Positions 19,148-28,436 of a stretch of 64,000 nucleotides of DNA are shown here, in pieces; positions within the stretch are counted from its first letter, which is position 1; each line of letters opens with the position of its first letter. The DNA is from Gemmatimonadota bacterium (GTDB lineage Bacteria; Gemmatimonadota; Gemmatimonadetes; Palauibacterales; KS3-K002). The notes under the pieces were generated by a model that was given only the letters and a program-made list of their open reading frames with translations, did not search any database and had not been told where the DNA came from. Both the position numbers and the translations under genes were made by a program. The stretch spans positions 602,894-666,893 of the forward strand of contig CP070815.1 of assembly GCA_020344215.1 (NCBI GenBank), in the 5' to 3' direction.

Positions 19148-20452
19148 ATGCAGAGGAATCGCACCGCAACGCTCGTCGCCTTGGTCCTCACCCTCGCGGC
19201 TGTAGCTCCCACGAGCGTGGCGGCACAGGAAGCGAAAGTGGACAGCCTGGAAGCTCGTATCAAAGAGCTGGAAGCTCGCCTTGATAGCCTGCTCGCGGTA
19301 CTGGCAGGCGGCGAGCGTGCCGACAGTGCGGCGCTGCGGCAGGCCGACGAGCTCGAGGCACTACGTGCTGCGGCGCTGGCGGCTGCCGCCGAGCAGCCGG
19401 AGGCGGACACATCCCAGGAGAGCCGCACGCGCGACCTGAGCATACTCAACCCGGAGATCAGCGTAACTGGCGATGTGGTAGGAACTTACACAGCGCGCGC
19501 CGGGGCCGACAACAGGCTCAGCGGGGTACCGAGGGAGTTCGAGTTCGGATTCGAGTCGGCCCTCGATCCGTACACCCGCACGAAGATCTTCGTGAGCTAC
19601 CATGAGGAGCTCGAGATTGCGGGACTGGAACCGGAGGAAGAAGGTGAGGGGCACGAGCACGGCGGTTTCGAGATCGAGGAAGGTTACCTCTACTGGGTGG
19701 GGCTTCCGGCTAACCTGGGCCTCAAGATCGGCAAGTTCCGGCAAGAGATCGGACTCTACAACCGCTGGCACACACATGCACTCGTCGAGGTGGATCGCCC
19801 GTTGCCGACCGTGGCCTTCTTGGGCGACGATGGTCTAATCCAGACCGGCCTCGCGTTCACTCTCCCCACTGTGGTCACCGGTCCCGGCACGCATATGGCT
19901 ACGCTGGAGATCACCCGGAGTGAGAACGATGCTCTCTTCGAGGCGGCCAAGGAGATCAGCTTCCTCGGTAACTTACGGAGCTTCTGGGACCTAGGTCCTA
20001 GCTCCTACCTGCAGCTCGGCGTGACGGGGGTGTACGGCGCGAACGACGTCGCGGCCGAACCGTTCGATGCAAGCCTGCTCGCCCTGGACATCTCGTTTCG
20101 CTGGCGTCCCCCGGGCAGAGCTCTGTACCGCGACTTCAGCCTCAAGGGCGAATGGTATTATGCCAGGCGGGACTTCGGGTCTACCGACGTCACGGGGGAC
20201 GGAGGATACGTCCAGGCCAACTATCGGCTTAACCGGCGCTGGATCGCGGGGCTGCGGGCCGATTACCTGGACAACTACGGGGAGGGCGGCGAACTGTACC
20301 AGCTGGTCCCGAGCCTCACCTGGTGGCAGAGCGAGTGGGTGTTCTTCCGGCTGCAATACAACTTTGTGAAGCCGGAGAATGGCGACGGCAGCCACACTGT
20401 TCTGCTTCAGACCGTCTGGGCGATGGGGCCACACAAGCACGAGGCGTACTAG
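19148..20452 (+). CDS. Outer-membrane porin-like beta-barrel protein (copy 2)
   Basis: Paralog of 15247-16548 with the same signal peptide + coiled coil + beta-barrel architecture. His-rich loop EEEGEGHEHGG. Confidence 0.6.
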   Translation: MQRNRTATLVALVLTLAAVAPTSVAAQEAKVDSLEARIKELEARLDSLLAVLAGGERADSAALRQADELEALRAAALAAAAEQPEADTSQESRTRDLSILNPEISVTGDVVGTYTARAGADNRLSGVPREFEFGFESALDPYTRTKIFVSYHEELEIAGLEPEEEGEGHEHGGFEIEEGYLYWVGLPANLGLKIGKFRQEIGLYNRWHTHALVEVDRPLPTVAFLGDDGLIQTGLAFTLPTVVTGPGTHMATLEITRSENDALFEAAKEISFLGNLRSFWDLGPSSYLQLGVTGVYGANDVAAEPFDASLLALDISFRWRPPGRALYRDFSLKGEWYYARRDFGSTDVTGDGGYVQANYRLNRRWIAGLRADYLDNYGEGGELYQLVPSLTWWQSEWVFFRLQYNFVKPENGDGSHTVLLQTVWAMGPHKHEAY

Positions 20453-21724: not shown

Positions 21725-22587
21725 ATGGCAGAGCTGATGCTTCCGGCCCTCGTGGTCTCACTCATTCTGGTCGGCATCCACGGCTACCTGGGCATTCACA
21801 TCATCGCCCGGGGGGTAATCTTCGTGGACCTGGCCCTTGCACAGGTGGCCGCGCTCGGCTGGGCGGCCGCCGGCTTGGGTCTCTCTGAGGCGCTGGGTGA
21901 CTGGCTGGGGATCCCGGTCTCCGAAGCCGGCTACGCCATAGGGCTCGCCGCCACACTGATCGCCGCAGCCTTGTTCAGTGTCTCGCGGATGGAGCATGAG
22001 TTCGTGCCGCAAGAGGCGATCATCGGGATCGTCTACGTAGTGGCATCGGCAGGGACGATCCTTCTGGCAGCCCAAGCACCGCGCGGCTCGGAACACGTGG
22101 ACGAGCTCCTCTCGGGCAGCCTGCTTTGGGTGGCGTGGCCGGAAATCTTGAAGACCGCTCTCATCTACGCTGTCATTGGCGGGGTACACTGGCTGCTGCG
22201 CGATCGCTTCATCACGATCTCGATGACGCCGGACGAAGCGAAGGCGAGGAGCTGGAAAGTGGTCGGCTGGGACTTCGCTTTCTACGCGTTGTTTGGCGTG
22301 GTCGTCACTTCATCGGTGGCGATCGCAGGGGTGCTGGTCGTGTTCAGCTTCCTCGTAGCCCCGCCGTGATCGCCTTCCTGTTCACTGCGAAACCAGGCAA
22401 GCTGATCGCGATTGCCTATTCGACGGACACGCTGGCCGCAATTGCGGGACTGTACGCCTCGTACGAGACGGATCTGCCAACGGGACCGACGGTGGTGTGC
22501 ACGTTCGCGCTGGCGCTGCTGTCGGCCTTTGCGCTGTCCCAGATCAAGCGCCGCGTGCCCTCGGTATCAGGGGCGACAGCTGAATAG
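21725..22587 (+). pseudogene. ZnuB-like metal ABC permease (copy 2) disrupted by a 1-nt deletion (frameshift)
   Basis: Frame +1 (21725-22369) matches copy 1 up to ...VLVVFSFLV and then hits a stop. The rest of the protein (AVIAFLFTAKPGKL...TGPTVV) continues in another frame, 22126-22587. At DNA level, copy 1 has 'gtg atc cct gcc gtg' where copy 2 has 'gta gcc ccg ccg tg', one base shorter, at about 22355-22370. Confidence 0.6.
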
Positions 22588-22624
22588 CGAGCTGGGGACC
22601 CGGCCTCGCTACGCTCCTGTCCCG

Positions 22625-23236
22625 TTATCTGGGTCTCTCGCTTCGGCTCACCCAGCCGCTTCTGCGGTCGTAGAAGCGCCACCTCTTTGTCGTGCCCTTC
22701 GTGATCCCGACTCGGGTTGTGCGCGCTACCGAACTCTTCGGGACCTTGGTGCCCGGGGTGATGAACAGCGGCGCGTCGCTCAGACGGTGGCGCTGGAGGC
22801 TCGGGCCGATAGCGAGGGCCTGGGTAAGCTTAGCCGGCCCGGAGGTGAGCTCCCGATCCGTGCGACCCGGGCGCCGGCGCCGCATAGTCTCCAAACCTTC
22901 CAGCGGCTCGACGGCTCGGATCAACACGGCGGCGGGGTAGCCTTCGGGCCCCACCACGACGTTAAGGCACCAGTGGACCCCGAAGTTGAGATGGAAATAG
23001 GCCGTCCCCGGGGGACCGAACATGGGGTCGTTACGGGCGGTGCGCCCGATGGGTGCCGCGGCGTGGGAGGCCGGATCGTGCGGACCGGGATAAGCCTCCG
23101 TCTCGACGATCCGGCCCACGCAGCGCTTACCCCCGCAATCGGACACCAGGAAGGAACCGAGCAGCTCCCGCGCTACGGTCTCGGCCGGCCGGTCGAAAAA
23201 GGAGGCGGCGACCAAGGGCCGGTAGCGACCGTTCAT
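22625..23236 (-). CDS. mpg: DNA-3-methyladenine glycosylase (Mpg/AAG family)
   Basis: VGRIVETEAYPGPHDPASHA...FGPPGTAYFHLNFGVHWCLNVV is the Mpg family signature. The ATG overlaps the upstream gene's stop (ATGA at 23234-23238). Confidence 0.8.
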   Translation of the reverse strand: MNGRYRPLVAASFFDRPAETVARELLGSFLVSDCGGKRCVGRIVETEAYPGPHDPASHAAAPIGRTARNDPMFGPPGTAYFHLNFGVHWCLNVVVGPEGYPAAVLIRAVEPLEGLETMRRRRPGRTDRELTSGPAKLTQALAIGPSLQRHRLSDAPLFITPGTKVPKSSVARTTRVGITKGTTKRWRFYDRRSGWVSRSERPR

Positions 23237-25383
23237 CAGTCGCCGGTCTTCCTCTCCTCCCGGCGCGCCTCCAAAACCCGCTCCGCCCGGCGATCGGGCA
23301 GGACCTCGCGGACTCGTTCCGGCTCCTCGTCTAGAATCCGCAGGGTCTCGGCGCCAAACGCCTCGACCAGGGTCTCCGCAGTCTTCTCCCCCACCCCGGG
23401 ATAGCCGGTCAGGCGGGAGACTATGGCGCCGGTGTCGCCGCCGGCGGCCTGCTCAACACGATCCGCCTCGGCGCTCGCAGGCTCGCTGTCCGGCTTCTTC
23501 TGACCCTCGAAGACCGGTGGCGGTGCCTGCGACGGGCGATAGCGACCACGCGTGCCCCAGCGCCCGCGAATCGTACCTCTGGGCGCGCCGGGCAGCGGCG
23601 CCGGCGCGACCGCCGACCGCTTCGATTCGTCGCCCGCTTCCCGCGTCGGCGAAGCCACACCTCGATCGGCATGCTCGGCGGCACCGCCTACTGCCACGTC
23701 GACAGCCGGCGCGGCCGCCAGCGGCGCCGAGGCCACGGCGGCCTCTTCGACATCGACCTCGGCGGCCGAGGGCTCGGGCGGACGTGCAAGACGCTCTTCA
23801 GCACGATGGCCTTTGCGGGGCTCCCGCGGGCCTCTGCCCTCCTCCCGCGTGCGGCGCTCAGCGCCCCCGCGACTCGCCGGCCGCCGCTCTTCGCGCCGAC
23901 CCCTGCCGCCGCGCGCCGACGTCCCTTCAGCCCGCCCCCCGCCGGTCCGGCTTTCCCTCCTGCCCTTCGCTCCCCGCGTGGCCGCGGCCTGTCTACCCCT
24001 CGGCTCACCCCTGCCCTTCCTCGCTTCGCGCGGTTCTTCCGGGCGCTTGCGCTCGGGCGCGCGCGGCTCGCGCTTCGGAGCTGCTGCCGGTGCCTCGCGG
24101 TCCGCCGGCTCCTGGGGACCGGTGCCGAACAGCAAACGTGCCAGACGTTTGACCGTGGATCCTTTCTCACCGGCACTCGGCTCGGCGCTCGGCTGACGCG
24201 GCTTCCTGCGTCGCGCCGACCCCTTCGACCGCCCAACGTGGTAGTTCCCGTTGGGGCCTCTGGTCAGCTCGATGGCGCCTTCCTCGGCGGCCGCGAGCAA
24301 GAACTTGCTGAACTTGCTGAAGCCCAACTCGCCCTCATCGAAGGCCGGATCGATCTCGAGGATACGGCGCTTCACATCGCTGTCACGGACCGAGGCGTCG
24401 TCTGCTTCGAGCAGCGTCCCGAGCGCTCGATCCAGAAGCTCGAGTGCAGACTTCATCGTCAGCTTCGGCCGGGCCCGGCGCGTCCGATCCTCCTCGGTTG
24501 CCCGCGCGCCAGGCTCCGCTGCCTCTCTCACCTTCTCGCGAGCCCGGCGTCCGCCGCGTTCGACCTTCGCTTCCCGCTTCTTCGCTACGCCAGCGCTCTC
24601 CGGCTTGCCCCCCTCGCCCGGCGCGACGCCGTACTGGCCGTTCTCCATCTTCTGGATCGAGACCAGGCCCTGGGAAGCAGCCTCCACAACGAACCGGTTG
24701 AACTTGTTGAAGCCCTGCTCCTTCTCGTTGAAGGAGGGGTCGATCTCCAACATGACCTGCTTCAAGCGGTCAGACCTCATCGTGTCGCCGCGCTCGACCA
24801 TCTTCCCGATGGCCTTCTCGACCAACACCCATGGATCGTGACTCTCGAGCGGTTGATCGCCGCTCCTGCTCAGGCCCGACAGCGACGAGTAGCTGTAGTA
24901 CTCGTCGCAATTCTGCACCAGAAGGTCGGAGCTCGACTCTTGGATCCCCACGCCGATCACGTACTTGCCGTACTCCTTGAGCTTGAGGACCAGGCTGGAG
25001 AAATCGCTGTCCCCCGACATGAGGATGAACGTTCTGATCTCCGGCCGGATGAACACCAGCTCGAGAGCGTCGATCGCCAGCCTGATGTCCGTCGCGTTCT
25101 TCTTCGACGACCCGTATGCCGGCGCGAAGATCAGGTCGATCGACGCCTCCGAGAGCGGCACGATGTACTGCGGATAACGACGCCAGTCCGCGTACGCCCG
25201 CTGCACCGCTACCTTCCCACGTATCACGTCGGAGTTCAGGAGATTGCGGAGTTCCTGACCGAGGTTCGACCGGATGCCCATCGTGACGTTGTCGAAATCG
25301 ATGAGCAGCGCGGCCTGAAGTGAATCTTCCACGTCGGCGCGACTATCGCTCCGACGCTCAGGCGAGTCTTGTCGCATTCCCAT
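23236..25383 (-). CDS. NYN (LabA-like) nuclease-domain protein with two OST-HTH/LOTUS domains, a long Arg/Glu/Ala/Pro-rich low-complexity region and a C-terminal helix-hairpin-helix motif
   Basis: N-terminal NYN core (LLIDFDNV...AYGSSKKNATDIRLAIDALELVF...FILMSGDSDFSSLVLKLKEYGKYVIGVG). Two OST-HTH repeats (LKQVMLEIDPSFNEKEQGFNKFNRFVVEA; VKRRILEIDPAFDEGELGFSKFSKFLLAA). About 300 aa of RE/AP-rich disorder. C-terminal LTGYPGVGEKTAETLVEAFG (HhH). Confidence 0.65.
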   Translation of the reverse strand: MGMRQDSPERRSDSRADVEDSLQAALLIDFDNVTMGIRSNLGQELRNLLNSDVIRGKVAVQRAYADWRRYPQYIVPLSEASIDLIFAPAYGSSKKNATDIRLAIDALELVFIRPEIRTFILMSGDSDFSSLVLKLKEYGKYVIGVGIQESSSDLLVQNCDEYYSYSSLSGLSRSGDQPLESHDPWVLVEKAIGKMVERGDTMRSDRLKQVMLEIDPSFNEKEQGFNKFNRFVVEAASQGLVSIQKMENGQYGVAPGEGGKPESAGVAKKREAKVERGGRRAREKVREAAEPGARATEEDRTRRARPKLTMKSALELLDRALGTLLEADDASVRDSDVKRRILEIDPAFDEGELGFSKFSKFLLAAAEEGAIELTRGPNGNYHVGRSKGSARRRKPRQPSAEPSAGEKGSTVKRLARLLFGTGPQEPADREAPAAAPKREPRAPERKRPEEPREARKGRGEPRGRQAAATRGAKGRRESRTGGGRAEGTSARGGRGRREERRPASRGGAERRTREEGRGPREPRKGHRAEERLARPPEPSAAEVDVEEAAVASAPLAAAPAVDVAVGGAAEHADRGVASPTREAGDESKRSAVAPAPLPGAPRGTIRGRWGTRGRYRPSQAPPPVFEGQKKPDSEPASAEADRVEQAAGGDTGAIVSRLTGYPGVGEKTAETLVEAFGAETLRILDEEPERVREVLPDRRAERVLEARREERKTGD

Positions 25384-25623
25384 GCCTCTTGTAACTCCTT
25401 TTAAAACAACAGATTAGGACACTTGAGAGGCAGCTGCACCGTCGTGGCGCGAGGGGCGTGAGCGTCGAAGTTCGATGGGAAGGAGCTTTGCGAGGCTGGC
25501 AACGGCGCCGATAACCGGTGGAGAATCATTCCACACGGTTGCAGCAGCCGTGCCGAGCATGCCCTTCCACTTCGCACACCGCTCGGGCGACGCTGGCAGT
25601 TCTGGCTCTCTCAAACAGCGTAG

Positions 25624-27141
25624 CTAGTCCCGACGCGCTGCCCGCTCGGCCTGAACCATTCGAGCGAGTTCTACGCGGCGGATCTTGCCGCTCCCCGTCA
25701 TGGGGAACGAGTCCACGAACCGCACGAGGTCCGGGACTTTGTATTGGGCGATCCGCCCCCGGCAGAAATCCTCGATCTCGTCGCCGGTGACGATTGCGCC
25801 CTCCACAGGTGCTATGCAGGCGCAGATGAGTTCGCCGAGGATCTCGTCCTCGACACCTACCACGACGGCTTCCTGCACGGCCGGGTGCAACCTTATCAGG
25901 TCCTCCAACTCGCGCGGGTAGACCGTGTACCCCCCGCGCGTGATAGTGTCCCTCTTACGGCCAACAACATGGAGATAGCCGTCCTCATCTACCATACCGA
26001 GGTCACCGGTCAGAAAGAACCCGTCATCGGTAAACGAGCGGCTCGTCTCATCCGGCTGCCTGAGGTAACCCTTCATCACGTTATAGCCACGGACCGCCAG
26101 CTCACCGACGGACTCCACCGGAAGCGGCGTGCCGTCGTCGCCGAGCACCCGTGCTTCCAGACCCGGAAGCAGGCGGCCCGACGTGAAGTTGCGCTTTTCC
26201 GGCGGATCGGCGGCCTGCGTGATCGAGACCCACGGCGAGGTTTCCGTCAACCCGTAAGCCACTTCCACACCCGGGACAAGCCGCTCGCGGACCTCTCGCG
26301 CCAACCTGTCGAGAACCGACGCCCCCGCCATGATGCCTGTACGCAGACTGGAAAGATCGAGATCATCGATCGCCCCGCAGCGCAACTGCATCACGAACAT
26401 CGTGGGTACACCATGAAGCACGGTCACCCGCGCTTCCTCCACCAGCTGCAACGTCTCGACCGCGTCAAACTTGGCTACCGGTACCACACTGGAACCCACA
26501 CTCAACGCGGCGATCAGCGCACCCAGACCGAAGATGTTGAACATCGGCACCGGTAGGAGAGTCACGTCCTCTGTCGTCATCCCCAAGGCCTCGGCCAGCG
26601 CACCGTTGGACTGCACAAGGTTCGCGTGCGTCAGCATCACACCCTTCGGCTTCCCAGTCGTCCCGGCCGTGTAGAGGATAGCGTAGACATCCTCATCCGG
26701 GTTCACCTCGGCCGGCGGCAGGCTCTTCCCCTCCCCACTCGAAATCATATCCTCGAACTGGAAGACCCGGTCATCGTACCACAGGTCCTCCTCCCCCACC
26801 GTCACCATGTACTGCAGGTCGGGGAGACCGAACTGCATCCGCTCGAACAGCTCCAGGTTGTCTTGCCCCTCGAACTCCTCGACGACGATCACCACCGACG
26901 CCTCCGAGTTCCTGAGCATGAACTGGAGCTCGTGCGTCGAGTACGCCGGATTGAGCGGGACGATTGTCGCGCCCAAATATGCGGCGGCGAGAGCCGATAT
27001 CACGAACTCGGGCCCGTTCGGCAAATCGATGGCCACACGGTCCCCCGCCCCGATCCCTAGGTTGTGCAGCGCCGCCGCCAGGGCACGGGCCTGAAGCTGG
27101 ATCCGCTCGTAGGACAGCGTGTCTCTGCCGAGTCTCACCAA
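25624..27141 (-). CDS. AMP-dependent synthetase/ligase (acyl-CoA synthetase family)
   Basis: LYTAGTTGKPKGVMLTHANL AMP-binding motif, plus GYGLTETSP and GD..GY.HVVGRKRD motifs. Confidence 0.8.
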   Translation of the reverse strand: MVRLGRDTLSYERIQLQARALAAALHNLGIGAGDRVAIDLPNGPEFVISALAAAYLGATIVPLNPAYSTHELQFMLRNSEASVVIVVEEFEGQDNLELFERMQFGLPDLQYMVTVGEEDLWYDDRVFQFEDMISSGEGKSLPPAEVNPDEDVYAILYTAGTTGKPKGVMLTHANLVQSNGALAEALGMTTEDVTLLPVPMFNIFGLGALIAALSVGSSVVPVAKFDAVETLQLVEEARVTVLHGVPTMFVMQLRCGAIDDLDLSSLRTGIMAGASVLDRLAREVRERLVPGVEVAYGLTETSPWVSITQAADPPEKRNFTSGRLLPGLEARVLGDDGTPLPVESVGELAVRGYNVMKGYLRQPDETSRSFTDDGFFLTGDLGMVDEDGYLHVVGRKRDTITRGGYTVYPRELEDLIRLHPAVQEAVVVGVEDEILGELICACIAPVEGAIVTGDEIEDFCRGRIAQYKVPDLVRFVDSFPMTGSGKIRRVELARMVQAERAARRD

Positions 27142-27287: not shown

Positions 27288-28436
27288 TCACCGACCCTTG
27301 TCGAACAAGACCGCGCGGACCAGCTCCTCTGGCACCGGGTGCGTCCAGCTCCCCTCATCCGAGCCCGCCACGAGCCCGATATCGACCAGCAACGTGTAGC
27401 GGACCTGGCCCCCCTCCCGCTTCCCAGCCCGCTCCAGCGCCTCGAAGAACCGTGTTGGATCCGCATCCTGATCCAGCGCCACCGGCAGACGGGCCGCTTC
27501 GAGGACCTCGCGGACCCTTACCGAGACCCCCGGCCGGGTTACCCCCGCCGCCTCACCGATGGCGGCCTCCAGGGCCATCCCCGCGGCCACCGCCTCACCG
27601 TGCAACCAGGCGTAGCCCGAGATCGCCTCCTGCGCACTGGCCAAGGTGTGGCCGAAGTTCAGCACCCTGCGGTACCCACCTTCCCACTCGTCGCGGCTCA
27701 TGACTTCGGCCTTGATCTCCACGGATCGCGCGATCAGATCGCTCAGGCGCTCCGGGTCCCGGGCGAACAGGTCCTCCAGCCCGTCGGCGATGGACTCGAA
27801 ATACGCCGCGTCGAGAATGAGACCGTGCTTGAACGCCTCCGCGAGACCCGACGCGAACTGCGGCGCCGGCAGTGTTGTCAGCACCGCGGGGTCGGCCAGC
27901 ACGAGCGCAGGCTGGTGAAAGGCACCCACCAGGTTCTTGCCGGCCGGCGTATCGACGCCCGTCATGCCGCCGACCGAGCTGTCGAGCATCGCCAGCAGGG
28001 TGGTCGGAATCTGTATCAAAGGCACGCCCCGCATGAAGGTCGCGGCCACGAAGCCACCCAGGTCGCCGGCCACACCGCCGCCCAGAACGATGACAGCAGC
28101 ATCGCGCCCGAACCCAGCTCTCAACATCCCATCGCCAAGCTCGCTCCAGCTCTCGCGGGTCTTGTTCCATTCACCCGCCGGGAACTTCAATAGCGCCCCC
28201 TTCAACCCTTCCGCCTCAAGAGCGGCGAGCGTCCGCTCCCCATAGAGCTCGGCCACCTGAGTGTCGGCGATGATCGCATAGCGGTCCGCCGGGCATGCGC
28301 TGCCGATCATCGCACCGGCGTCGTCGAGCATGCCGGGTCGGACCCAGACGTCGTAGGAGACGACCTCCGCATCCCTCTTCACTTTGACCGTGGTGCGATG
28401 ACCGCCGTGCTCTTGCCCGTTCATCCTTCGTTTCAA
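27288..28436 (-). CDS. aroB: 3-dehydroquinate synthase
   Basis: GGGVAGDLGGFVAATFMRGVPLIQIPTTLLAMLDSSVGGMTGVDTPAGKNLVGAFHQP is the DHQS nucleotide/metal-binding core. Confidence 0.85.
   Translation of the reverse strand: MKRRMNGQEHGGHRTTVKVKRDAEVVSYDVWVRPGMLDDAGAMIGSACPADRYAIIADTQVAELYGERTLAALEAEGLKGALLKFPAGEWNKTRESWSELGDGMLRAGFGRDAAVIVLGGGVAGDLGGFVAATFMRGVPLIQIPTTLLAMLDSSVGGMTGVDTPAGKNLVGAFHQPALVLADPAVLTTLPAPQFASGLAEAFKHGLILDAAYFESIADGLEDLFARDPERLSDLIARSVEIKAEVMSRDEWEGGYRRVLNFGHTLASAQEAISGYAWLHGEAVAAGMALEAAIGEAAGVTRPGVSVRVREVLEAARLPVALDQDADPTRFFEALERAGKREGGQVRYTLLVDIGLVAGSDEGSWTHPVPEELVRAVLFDKGR

Follow-up and report, generated by a model that had tools for sequence, protein, structure and literature searches.

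Bacterial proteins in which a NYN nuclease domain (DUF88, the 'LK-nuclease' of COG1432) is joined to one or two OST-HTH (LOTUS) domains were described in 2010 by Anantharaman, Zhang and Aravind as a stereotyped architecture (PMC2848206). The authors predicted a stand-alone RNA-degradation enzyme, reported no conserved gene neighbourhoods and listed fusions to S1/CSD, Zn-knuckle and DUF2384 domains. Synechocystis Slr1870 and Treponema TP0894 are proteins of this kind, in which a NYN domain at the N-terminus precedes one or two LOTUS domains. In animal MARF1 (limkain b1), an mRNA decay protein of eukaryotes, each of four aspartates is required for cleavage of single-stranded RNA (PMC6217404). 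Here we describe a relative of these proteins that is encoded on the minus strand of a 64,000-nucleotide (nt) stretch of Gemmatimonadota bacterium contig CP070815.1 (assembly GCA_020344215.1, positions 602,894 to 666,893; 'the window' below). The gene specifies a NYN/LOTUS protein of 715 amino acids (aa) and overlaps mpg, the gene for a DNA-3-methyladenine glycosylase.

The protein resembles Slr1870 and TP0894 in its NYN and LOTUS domains, but it carries in addition a disordered, Arg-rich region of ~260 aa and a C-terminal helix-hairpin-helix domain, (HhH)2, and its gene has a phylum-wide mpg neighbourhood. The disordered region, the (HhH)2 domain and the mpg operon are lineage-specific additions to the NYN + OST-HTH core. 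With MARF1 it shares a NYN endoribonuclease domain, minimal LOTUS domains and the catalytic Asp/Asn/Ser pattern, whereas MARF1 has RRM domains of its own, eight LOTUS repeats and no HhH, and acts in eukaryotic mRNA decay. On balance, and with modest confidence, we read the protein as the ortholog, in Gemmatimonadota, of the MARF1-like 'LK-nuclease + OST-HTH' proteins of bacteria, probably an RNA-directed, tethered endonuclease that is co-expressed with Mpg. The evidence comes from the domains, an invariant active site, a conserved pairing and overlap with mpg, and an exchange of the C-terminal module. The architecture itself and the annotation 'NYN domain-containing protein' were already known; what is new is that the nuclease-glycosylase operon is conserved, that the NYN domain is conserved to an extreme degree, that the anchor can be swapped and that there is a candidate leader RNA. 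The gene and its parts are as follows.

23236..25383, minus strand: coding sequence of the NYN/2xLOTUS/disordered/(HhH)2 protein, 715 aa (open reading frame (ORF) list; identical NCBI protein)
24892..25314, minus strand: NYN (LabA-like, PIN-like) nuclease domain, aa 24-164 (PF01936, E 2.2e-25; match to PDB 2qip)
24610..24843, minus strand: LOTUS/OST-HTH domain 1, minimal type, aa 181-258 (predicted local distance difference test score (pLDDT) ~96; identity to domain 2)
24472..24609, minus strand: basic disordered linker between the LOTUS domains, aa 259-304 (pLDDT; composition)
24214..24471, minus strand: LOTUS/OST-HTH domain 2, aa 305-390 (PF12872, E 1.3e-9; pLDDT ~97)
23437..24213, minus strand: Arg/Ala/Gly/Pro/Glu-rich disordered region, aa 391-649 (pLDDT; composition; GC content)
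23500..23601, minus strand: conserved Arg-rich linear motif APLPGAPRGTIRGRWGTRGRYRPSQAPPPVFEGQ, aa 595-628, within the disordered region (alignments A1 and A2)
23239..23436, minus strand: C-terminal (HhH)2 domain, aa 650-715 (HHH_5 profile, structural model, Foldseek)

The NYN domain, which the original prediction had called LabA-like, was confirmed by Pfam. PF01936 scored 90.3 bits (cutoff 24.2) over profile positions 2-143 of 145, and the residues D29, D66, D99, D125 and N32 are invariant in 70/70 aligned homologs, with S or T at position 123. These residues follow the order and spacing of MARF1 D178/D215/D246/D272/N181/S270, a correspondence set by motif order and not by structural superposition. 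The only solved structure found by sequence was the stand-alone NYN protein VPA0982 (PDB 2qip), which has the SGDxDF core in common but differs in being a single domain of low similarity (weak profile match, E about 1e-4). TIGR00288, the name that JGI uses for many of the homologs, reached 33.4 bits against an equivalog cutoff of 178.45; 'TIGR00288 family' is a loose label only. Between the window and distant Gemmatimonadota the NYN domain has a median identity of 85% (range 83-92%), while the corresponding medians are 62% for LOTUS1, 50% for LOTUS2, 50% for (HhH)2, 51% for mpg, 54% for the acyl-CoA ligase encoded upstream and 49% for aroB. This extreme constraint suggests a housekeeping enzyme whose substrate or partner is itself highly conserved.

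The catalytic residues bear on the idea of a non-catalytic protein, an RNA-binding regulator or a scaffold of condensates similar to LabA, in which the NYN domain would act as a binding module only. The long Arg-rich disordered region, with its alternating blocks of charge, can be likened to condensate-forming tails and counts for such a role. For LabA of cyanobacteria, too, all reported genetic phenotypes are regulatory (PMC5499597). However, four catalytic Asp residues and an Asn are retained in every one of the 70 homologs, and neither the length nor the net charge of the disordered region is conserved. A purely structural or regulatory role is thus very unlikely, and the word 'scaffold', which had been applied to the protein in the original prediction, undersells it.

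Both LOTUS domains that had been predicted are present. The second (aa 315-382) was recognized by PF12872 with 38.2 bits (cutoff 23.8). The first (aa ~181-258), scanned alone, gave 18.9 bits and fell under the same cutoff; it is identified by its similarity to the second (38% identical, E 1e-19) and by its predicted winged-helix structure. In an AlphaFold2 model of the 715-aa protein, built on an alignment of 70 homologs, both domains fold as helix-helix-helix-strand-strand, a winged helix of the minimal type, which by definition is without a C-terminal extension helix, with pLDDT values of 95-98. A Foldseek search with the whole model returned TDRD7 (3rco, target-normalised TM-score 0.79), TDRD5, the bacterial OST-HTH protein NE0665 and the N-terminal region of RecD2; the E-values are weak because the query was the entire 715-aa model. 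The linker between the two domains (R 21%, A 17%, E 15%, K 12%) has a net charge of +8 and a pLDDT below 50. LOTUS domains, including one of the two bacterial ones assayed, bind G-rich or G-quadruplex (G4) RNA and not DNA G4 (PMC7498356).

The nuclease gene lies in a block of four genes, for which the remaining coding features are these.

23234..23238, minus strand: TGATG junction of the nuclease stop and the mpg start (sequence)
22625..23236, minus strand: mpg, DNA-3-methyladenine (methylpurine) glycosylase, 203 aa (PF02245, NF002003)
25624..27141, minus strand: AMP-dependent acyl-CoA ligase gene, conserved upstream neighbour (PF00501, PF13193; synteny)
27288..28436, minus strand: aroB (3-dehydroquinate synthase), first gene of the conserved four-gene block (PF01761, PF24621; synteny)

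The mpg product is an ordinary Mpg/AAG glycosylase. It matched PF02245 over its full length (E 2e-62, 210 bits) and exceeded the curated cutoffs of the equivalog NF002003 (190 bits, cutoff 182) and of TIGR00567 (169.5 bits, cutoff 116). Its linkage to the nuclease in relatives was assessed in a scan of one genome per species, which yielded at least 582 confirmed relatives; gene context was taken from the best 80 loci, all of which belong to Gemmatimonadota (Gemmatimonadales, Longimicrobiales and Palauibacter). Across these loci the genes recur in the order aroB, acyl-CoA ligase, NYN, mpg. In 73 of the 77 loci with enough downstream sequence, mpg comes next on the nuclease strand, and the projected gap has a median of 26 nt. 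The original prediction of a stop/start overlap holds as to the overlap itself, but not as to its form. The junction reads ...GGC GAC TGA TG AAC GGT..., so that the TGA of the nuclease and the ATG of mpg share a single base (TGATG) rather than forming a 4-base ATGA. Overlaps of the GTGA type occur in 11 other loci, namely ten of the closest clade and L074, while locus L082 has a 4-nt overlap and L081 a 3-nt gap.

A conserved gene order might be inherited without any shared function, and the nuclease and Mpg could then be unrelated members of a housekeeping operon (aroB, ligase, NYN, mpg) that is kept for co-expression. Metabolic genes with no obvious link to nucleic acids are conserved in the same block, and four informative loci (L023, L042, L058 and L070) have no mpg directly downstream of the nuclease gene. 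In the case of L023, the next gene encodes an NhaC-like transporter, which in 34 other loci comes after mpg. Against this, the NYN-mpg pair outlasts the rest of the block. In L081, where the upstream context is a ribosomal-protein/rpoB cluster, aroB and most of the ligase gene have been lost and the NYN-mpg pair is kept. The stop/start overlaps recur, and genes outside the block are conserved in at most 34/80 loci downstream and 27/80 upstream. A merely inherited arrangement is therefore distinctly unlikely. A scan for promoters and terminators found one intragenic promoter-like site and no terminators, and full-text searches of the literature turned up no paper that connects NYN proteins to Mpg or to Gemmatimonadota. 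PADLOC gave no match for the nuclease or for Mpg, and a reading of the pair as a defence system was dropped for this reason.

The C-terminal HhH motif of the original prediction was also borne out. HHH_5 (PF14520) matched aa 657-708 with 20.3 bits in the context of the whole protein and with 37.8 bits, above the cutoff of 27, when the C-terminus was scanned alone. The Gly-hydrophobic-Gly hairpin G663-V664-G665 is invariant in alignment A1. Residues 650-715 were modelled as a helical domain with pLDDT values of about 90-97, both in the whole-protein model and in a separate model of the C-terminus. Foldseek placed the (HhH)2 domains of XPF, UvrC, ERCC1-XPF, FAAP24 and RuvA at the top, at probabilities of 0.9-0.98 and root-mean-square deviations of 2.1-2.6 A over 53-62 columns; the E-values of 0.4-3 are weak for so small a domain. 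The (HhH)2 domain of NusA was matched as well. A PDB sequence-profile search gave weak C-terminal matches to the HhH repeats of XPF and topoisomerase V. The small helical (HhH)2 fold, with a GVG hairpin and placed at the C-terminal end of a nuclease, is shared with XPF/ERCC1, UvrC and domain II of RuvA, while the nuclease domains themselves are unrelated (ERCC4 and UvrC endonuclease as opposed to NYN) and the second HhH motif here lacks the glycine hairpin. The likeness is confined to (HhH)2, and no ERCC4-type nuclease domain (XPF/Mus81) was matched by Pfam in the 715-aa protein. When the C-terminal 120 aa served as the query, the search brought up only 17 short fragments, all from this family, and revealed no new context.

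Not all orthologs have this C-terminus. An exhaustive search of 1.84 billion cluster representatives gave 472 matches at E <1e-30 and 2361 at E <1e-10. Among the best 150 matches is a second subgroup with the same NYN domain (identities mostly 75-88%) and LOTUS1 but without (HhH)2. The second LOTUS-like region of its members is divergent, and their tail, rich in Lys and Arg, carries a related Arg motif and is followed by the amphipathic motif GG(L/F)(F/L)KRM(T/S)xA(F/L)QRA(V/L)xG and an acidic tail, as seen in the orthologs at L081 (6001-8685) and L082 (6001-8660) and in P0222, P0342 and P0404. The protein names and the loci L081 and L082 assign this sister subgroup to Gemmatimonadota, and its genes occupy the same locus, between ligase and mpg. 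The replacement of (HhH)2 by an amphipathic helix at one and the same locus indicates that the C-terminal module is interchangeable and that the NYN-mpg pair is the persistent unit. The amphipathic motif (GGLFKRMTxAFQRAVxG) may be a membrane anchor. We infer that the interchangeable C-terminus serves as a localisation anchor, to duplex DNA or to membrane, rather than in catalysis.

These results are central to the main rival explanation, in which the protein is a DNA-repair nuclease acting with Mpg. Once Mpg had excised an alkylated or deaminated purine, the (HhH)2 domain would position the PIN-like NYN domain on duplex DNA to incise the apurinic/apyrimidinic (AP) site or to process the ensuing 5' flap or blocked end, and the two genes would form a dedicated base-excision repair module. 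The glycosylase partner, which adjoins or overlaps the nuclease gene in nearly all loci and is kept when other neighbours change, and the XPF- and UvrC-like C-terminus, whose best structural and weak sequence matches include structure-specific DNA nucleases and topoisomerase V, keep this explanation alive. In addition, NYN is a member of the PIN/FEN-like superfamily, and operons that combine NYN with Udg4 are on record (PMC5499597). Such an operon likewise has a NYN gene beside a DNA glycosylase gene, but it involves another glycosylase family in another taxon and is a single example, not a phylum-wide one. The repair explanation is weakened by the RNA preference of characterised NYN and LOTUS domains, since the characterised NYN enzymes cited are all RNases and LOTUS domains favour RNA over DNA G4. 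It is weakened further by the sister subgroup, in which mpg is kept without (HhH)2, so that anchoring to DNA is not needed for the pairing. The FEN H3TH/5_3_exonuc C-terminal profile reached only 14.3-17.7 bits, far under its cutoff of 40. A direct role of the nuclease in base-excision repair is possible, but as a full account of the locus we consider it unlikely.

Between the second LOTUS domain and the C-terminus lies the tether. Residues 393-650 (258 aa) consist of A 18%, R 17%, G 13%, P 12% and E 12%, with a net charge of +17, and the region (aa 391-649) has a pLDDT below 50 in the AlphaFold2 model. This agrees with the GC-rich, low-complexity segment reported in the original prediction. 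Across the family the composition is similar, while the length ranges from 26 to 322 aa and the net charge from -24 to +33. Such variation in net charge suggests that the region acts as a flexible tether and not through a conserved pattern of charge. There is one exception within this fast-evolving segment, the Arg-rich motif APLPGAPRGTIRGRWGTRGRYRP..PPPxFEGQ (aa 595-628), which is almost invariant among the C-terminal fragments of close relatives in alignment A2. It forms a consensus block in alignment A1 and is recognisable as RxxxRxRxGSRGR in other members, including the sister subgroup.

The DNA beneath the middle of the ORF is 74-76% GC, compared to ~60-65% in the flanks, and the possibility had been raised that this segment is a collapsed repeat; alternatively, two genes might be joined by an open GC-rich frame. 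GC-rich sequence does yield long chance ORFs. The segment is overlain by three antisense ORFs (211, 214 and 550 aa), the thicket that had been predicted, and by two same-strand ORFs in alternative frames, so that the annotation hazard is real. The neighbouring permease gene is frameshifted, which may mean that the assembly is not free of errors. However, a search for tandem repeats found only two tiny ones, and the C-terminal domain is in frame in 117/120 best homologs from independent assemblies, despite an intervening disordered stretch of 26-322 aa. Orthologs number in the hundreds, and NCBI holds an identical protein (P0001, "NYN domain-containing protein [Gemmatimonadota bacterium]"). In the folded domains GC at third codon positions (0.80-0.91) is far above GC at second positions (0.33-0.49), a pattern expected of this organism's coding sequence. 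The collapsed repeat is rejected on these grounds, and an artefactual long ORF of either kind is barely credible.

The database entry P0001 is 713 aa long, as it begins at the second ATG. The first ATG (25383) is present in 14/14 aligned upstream regions, whereas the second is not always present, and an AAGGAG sequence lies 11 nt upstream. The 715-aa product of the original prediction is therefore better supported than the database start, which is probably two codons too late (region 25377-25383).

The intergenic region upstream of this start codon contains a further conserved element.

25384..25623, minus strand: conserved structured 5' leader filling the ligase-NYN intergenic region (alignments A3/A4, RNAalifold)

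The leader comprises the 240 nt between the ligase stop and the nuclease start and has invariant blocks in the closest clade, where it was found in the window, in L001-L009 and in L083-L092. According to RNAalifold these blocks pair in three nested helices. In alignment A4, which consists of 14 distinct related sequences, some of them added by a metagenome pattern scan, 96-97% of the cells are paired, compared to 37-54% when the partners are slid by 1-3 columns, and 5-6 pairs show compensatory changes. The block CUGCCUCUC has two alternative partners, the 5' block GAGAGAGCAG (helix P1) and GAGAGGCA directly before the AUG (helix P4). Helix P4 encloses the AAGGAG and abuts the AUG. L004 and L088 share one C-to-U change in the CUGCCUCUC block for which both alternative partners show compensation; the two loci are closely related, so this is probably a single event. 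The window's own leader has a minimum free energy of -98 kcal/mol (z -3.1). No credible Rfam match was obtained for the leader or for any other part of 22000-26000. We regard the leader as a candidate cis-regulatory element that is supported, not proven.

A phylum-wide alignment of upstream regions showed only faint shared blocks. Many of the distant loci (L010-L080) have the sequence (C)UGCGAGA some 10-15 nt ahead of the nuclease start codon, together with a GGGGAGGUCUCGC block upstream that could pair with it. This hints at a start-codon hairpin with a wider distribution than the close clade's leader.

RNase E consists of a catalytic N-terminal domain and a long Arg-rich disordered C-terminal tail with an amphipathic membrane anchor, and the rne transcript has a structured 5' leader. 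The disordered basic tail with its short conserved motif, the amphipathic helix of the sister subgroup and the structured leader described here resemble this organisation by analogy only, with no sequence relationship.

For the favoured MARF1-like endonuclease, these features suggest the following course of events. Single-stranded or structured (G-rich) nucleic acid, most likely RNA, would be bound by the LOTUS domains and Arg-rich segments and handed to the NYN site, which would cleave it endonucleolytically with the help of Mg or Mn, as MARF1 does. The (HhH)2 domain, on its flexible tether of ~260 residues, may anchor the enzyme non-specifically to duplex nucleic acid (the nucleoid). Nuclease and Mpg would be made from one transcript, with translation of Mpg coupled to the end of the nuclease ORF, and such a shared transcript would suggest, without proving it, joint handling of damaged nucleic acid. 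In the closest clade, the mutually exclusive helices of the leader by the ribosome-binding site and AUG would probably control expression. For a cyanobacterial protein with NYN and OST-HTH domains, co-purification with ribosomes and an RRM protein has been reported (PMC12232666).

Several points weigh against this account. The NYN region, the best conserved part of the protein, has a pLDDT below 55 in the AlphaFold2 model, in which the less conserved LOTUS and HhH domains exceed 95. This is probably due to the near-invariant alignment there, and the fold assignment is consequently one made from sequence profiles. The bacterial LOTUS domain of NE0665 did not bind G4 RNA (PMC7498356), and a survey of the PIN-like superfamily noted that a functional study of any bacterial NYN member is lacking (PMC5499597). 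A DNA substrate is possible, given that (HhH)2 is typical of DNA enzymes and that the partner is a DNA glycosylase. The presence of aroB and the acyl-CoA ligase in the same conserved block makes gene order alone weak evidence of shared function. As for the leader, its blocks were sought in all 80 loci and found in the closest clade only, and its support comes from 14 related sequences.

A more far-reaching proposal would make the NYN/LOTUS protein the dedicated partner of Mpg in a damage pathway specific to Gemmatimonadota. The nuclease might substitute for or supplement an AP endonuclease or flap nuclease, or the two enzymes might jointly clear alkylated or deaminated purines, one by RNA cleavage and the other by excision from DNA, with the nuclease controlling its own production via the mutually exclusive helices of the leader. 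We regard this proposal as speculative and rather doubtful.

Other genes near the block were noted in passing. The frameshifted permease gene (21725-22587, plus strand), of the ABC-3 (ZnuB-like) type, is split between two reading frames with a break near 22360; residues 3-216 of the L001 homolog match in one frame and residues 216-262 in another. It is either a pseudogene or the result of a 1-nt assembly error at a C-rich run. A 434-aa ORF (19148-20452, plus strand) with a signal-peptide-like N-terminus lies upstream of a ZnuA-like gene and had no match in a Pfam scan. Divergent from aroB are two tandem, slightly overlapping genes for D-Ala-D-Ala-ligase-like ATP-grasp proteins (28764-30999, plus strand).

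In practical terms, the GC-rich disordered segment yields long false ORFs, and the start codon in the database is probably off. The NYN domain in Gemmatimonadota is as conserved as core informational proteins. That the anchor can be swapped, (HhH)2 for an amphipathic helix, suggests a part for localisation in the protein's function, and the candidate leader RNA points to regulated expression. MARF1 presumably descends from bacterial NYN + LOTUS proteins, and the paper that founded the group gave no informative neighbourhood for them. The phylum-wide coupling to a DNA glycosylase gene provides the first testable functional context for bacterial NYN + LOTUS proteins.

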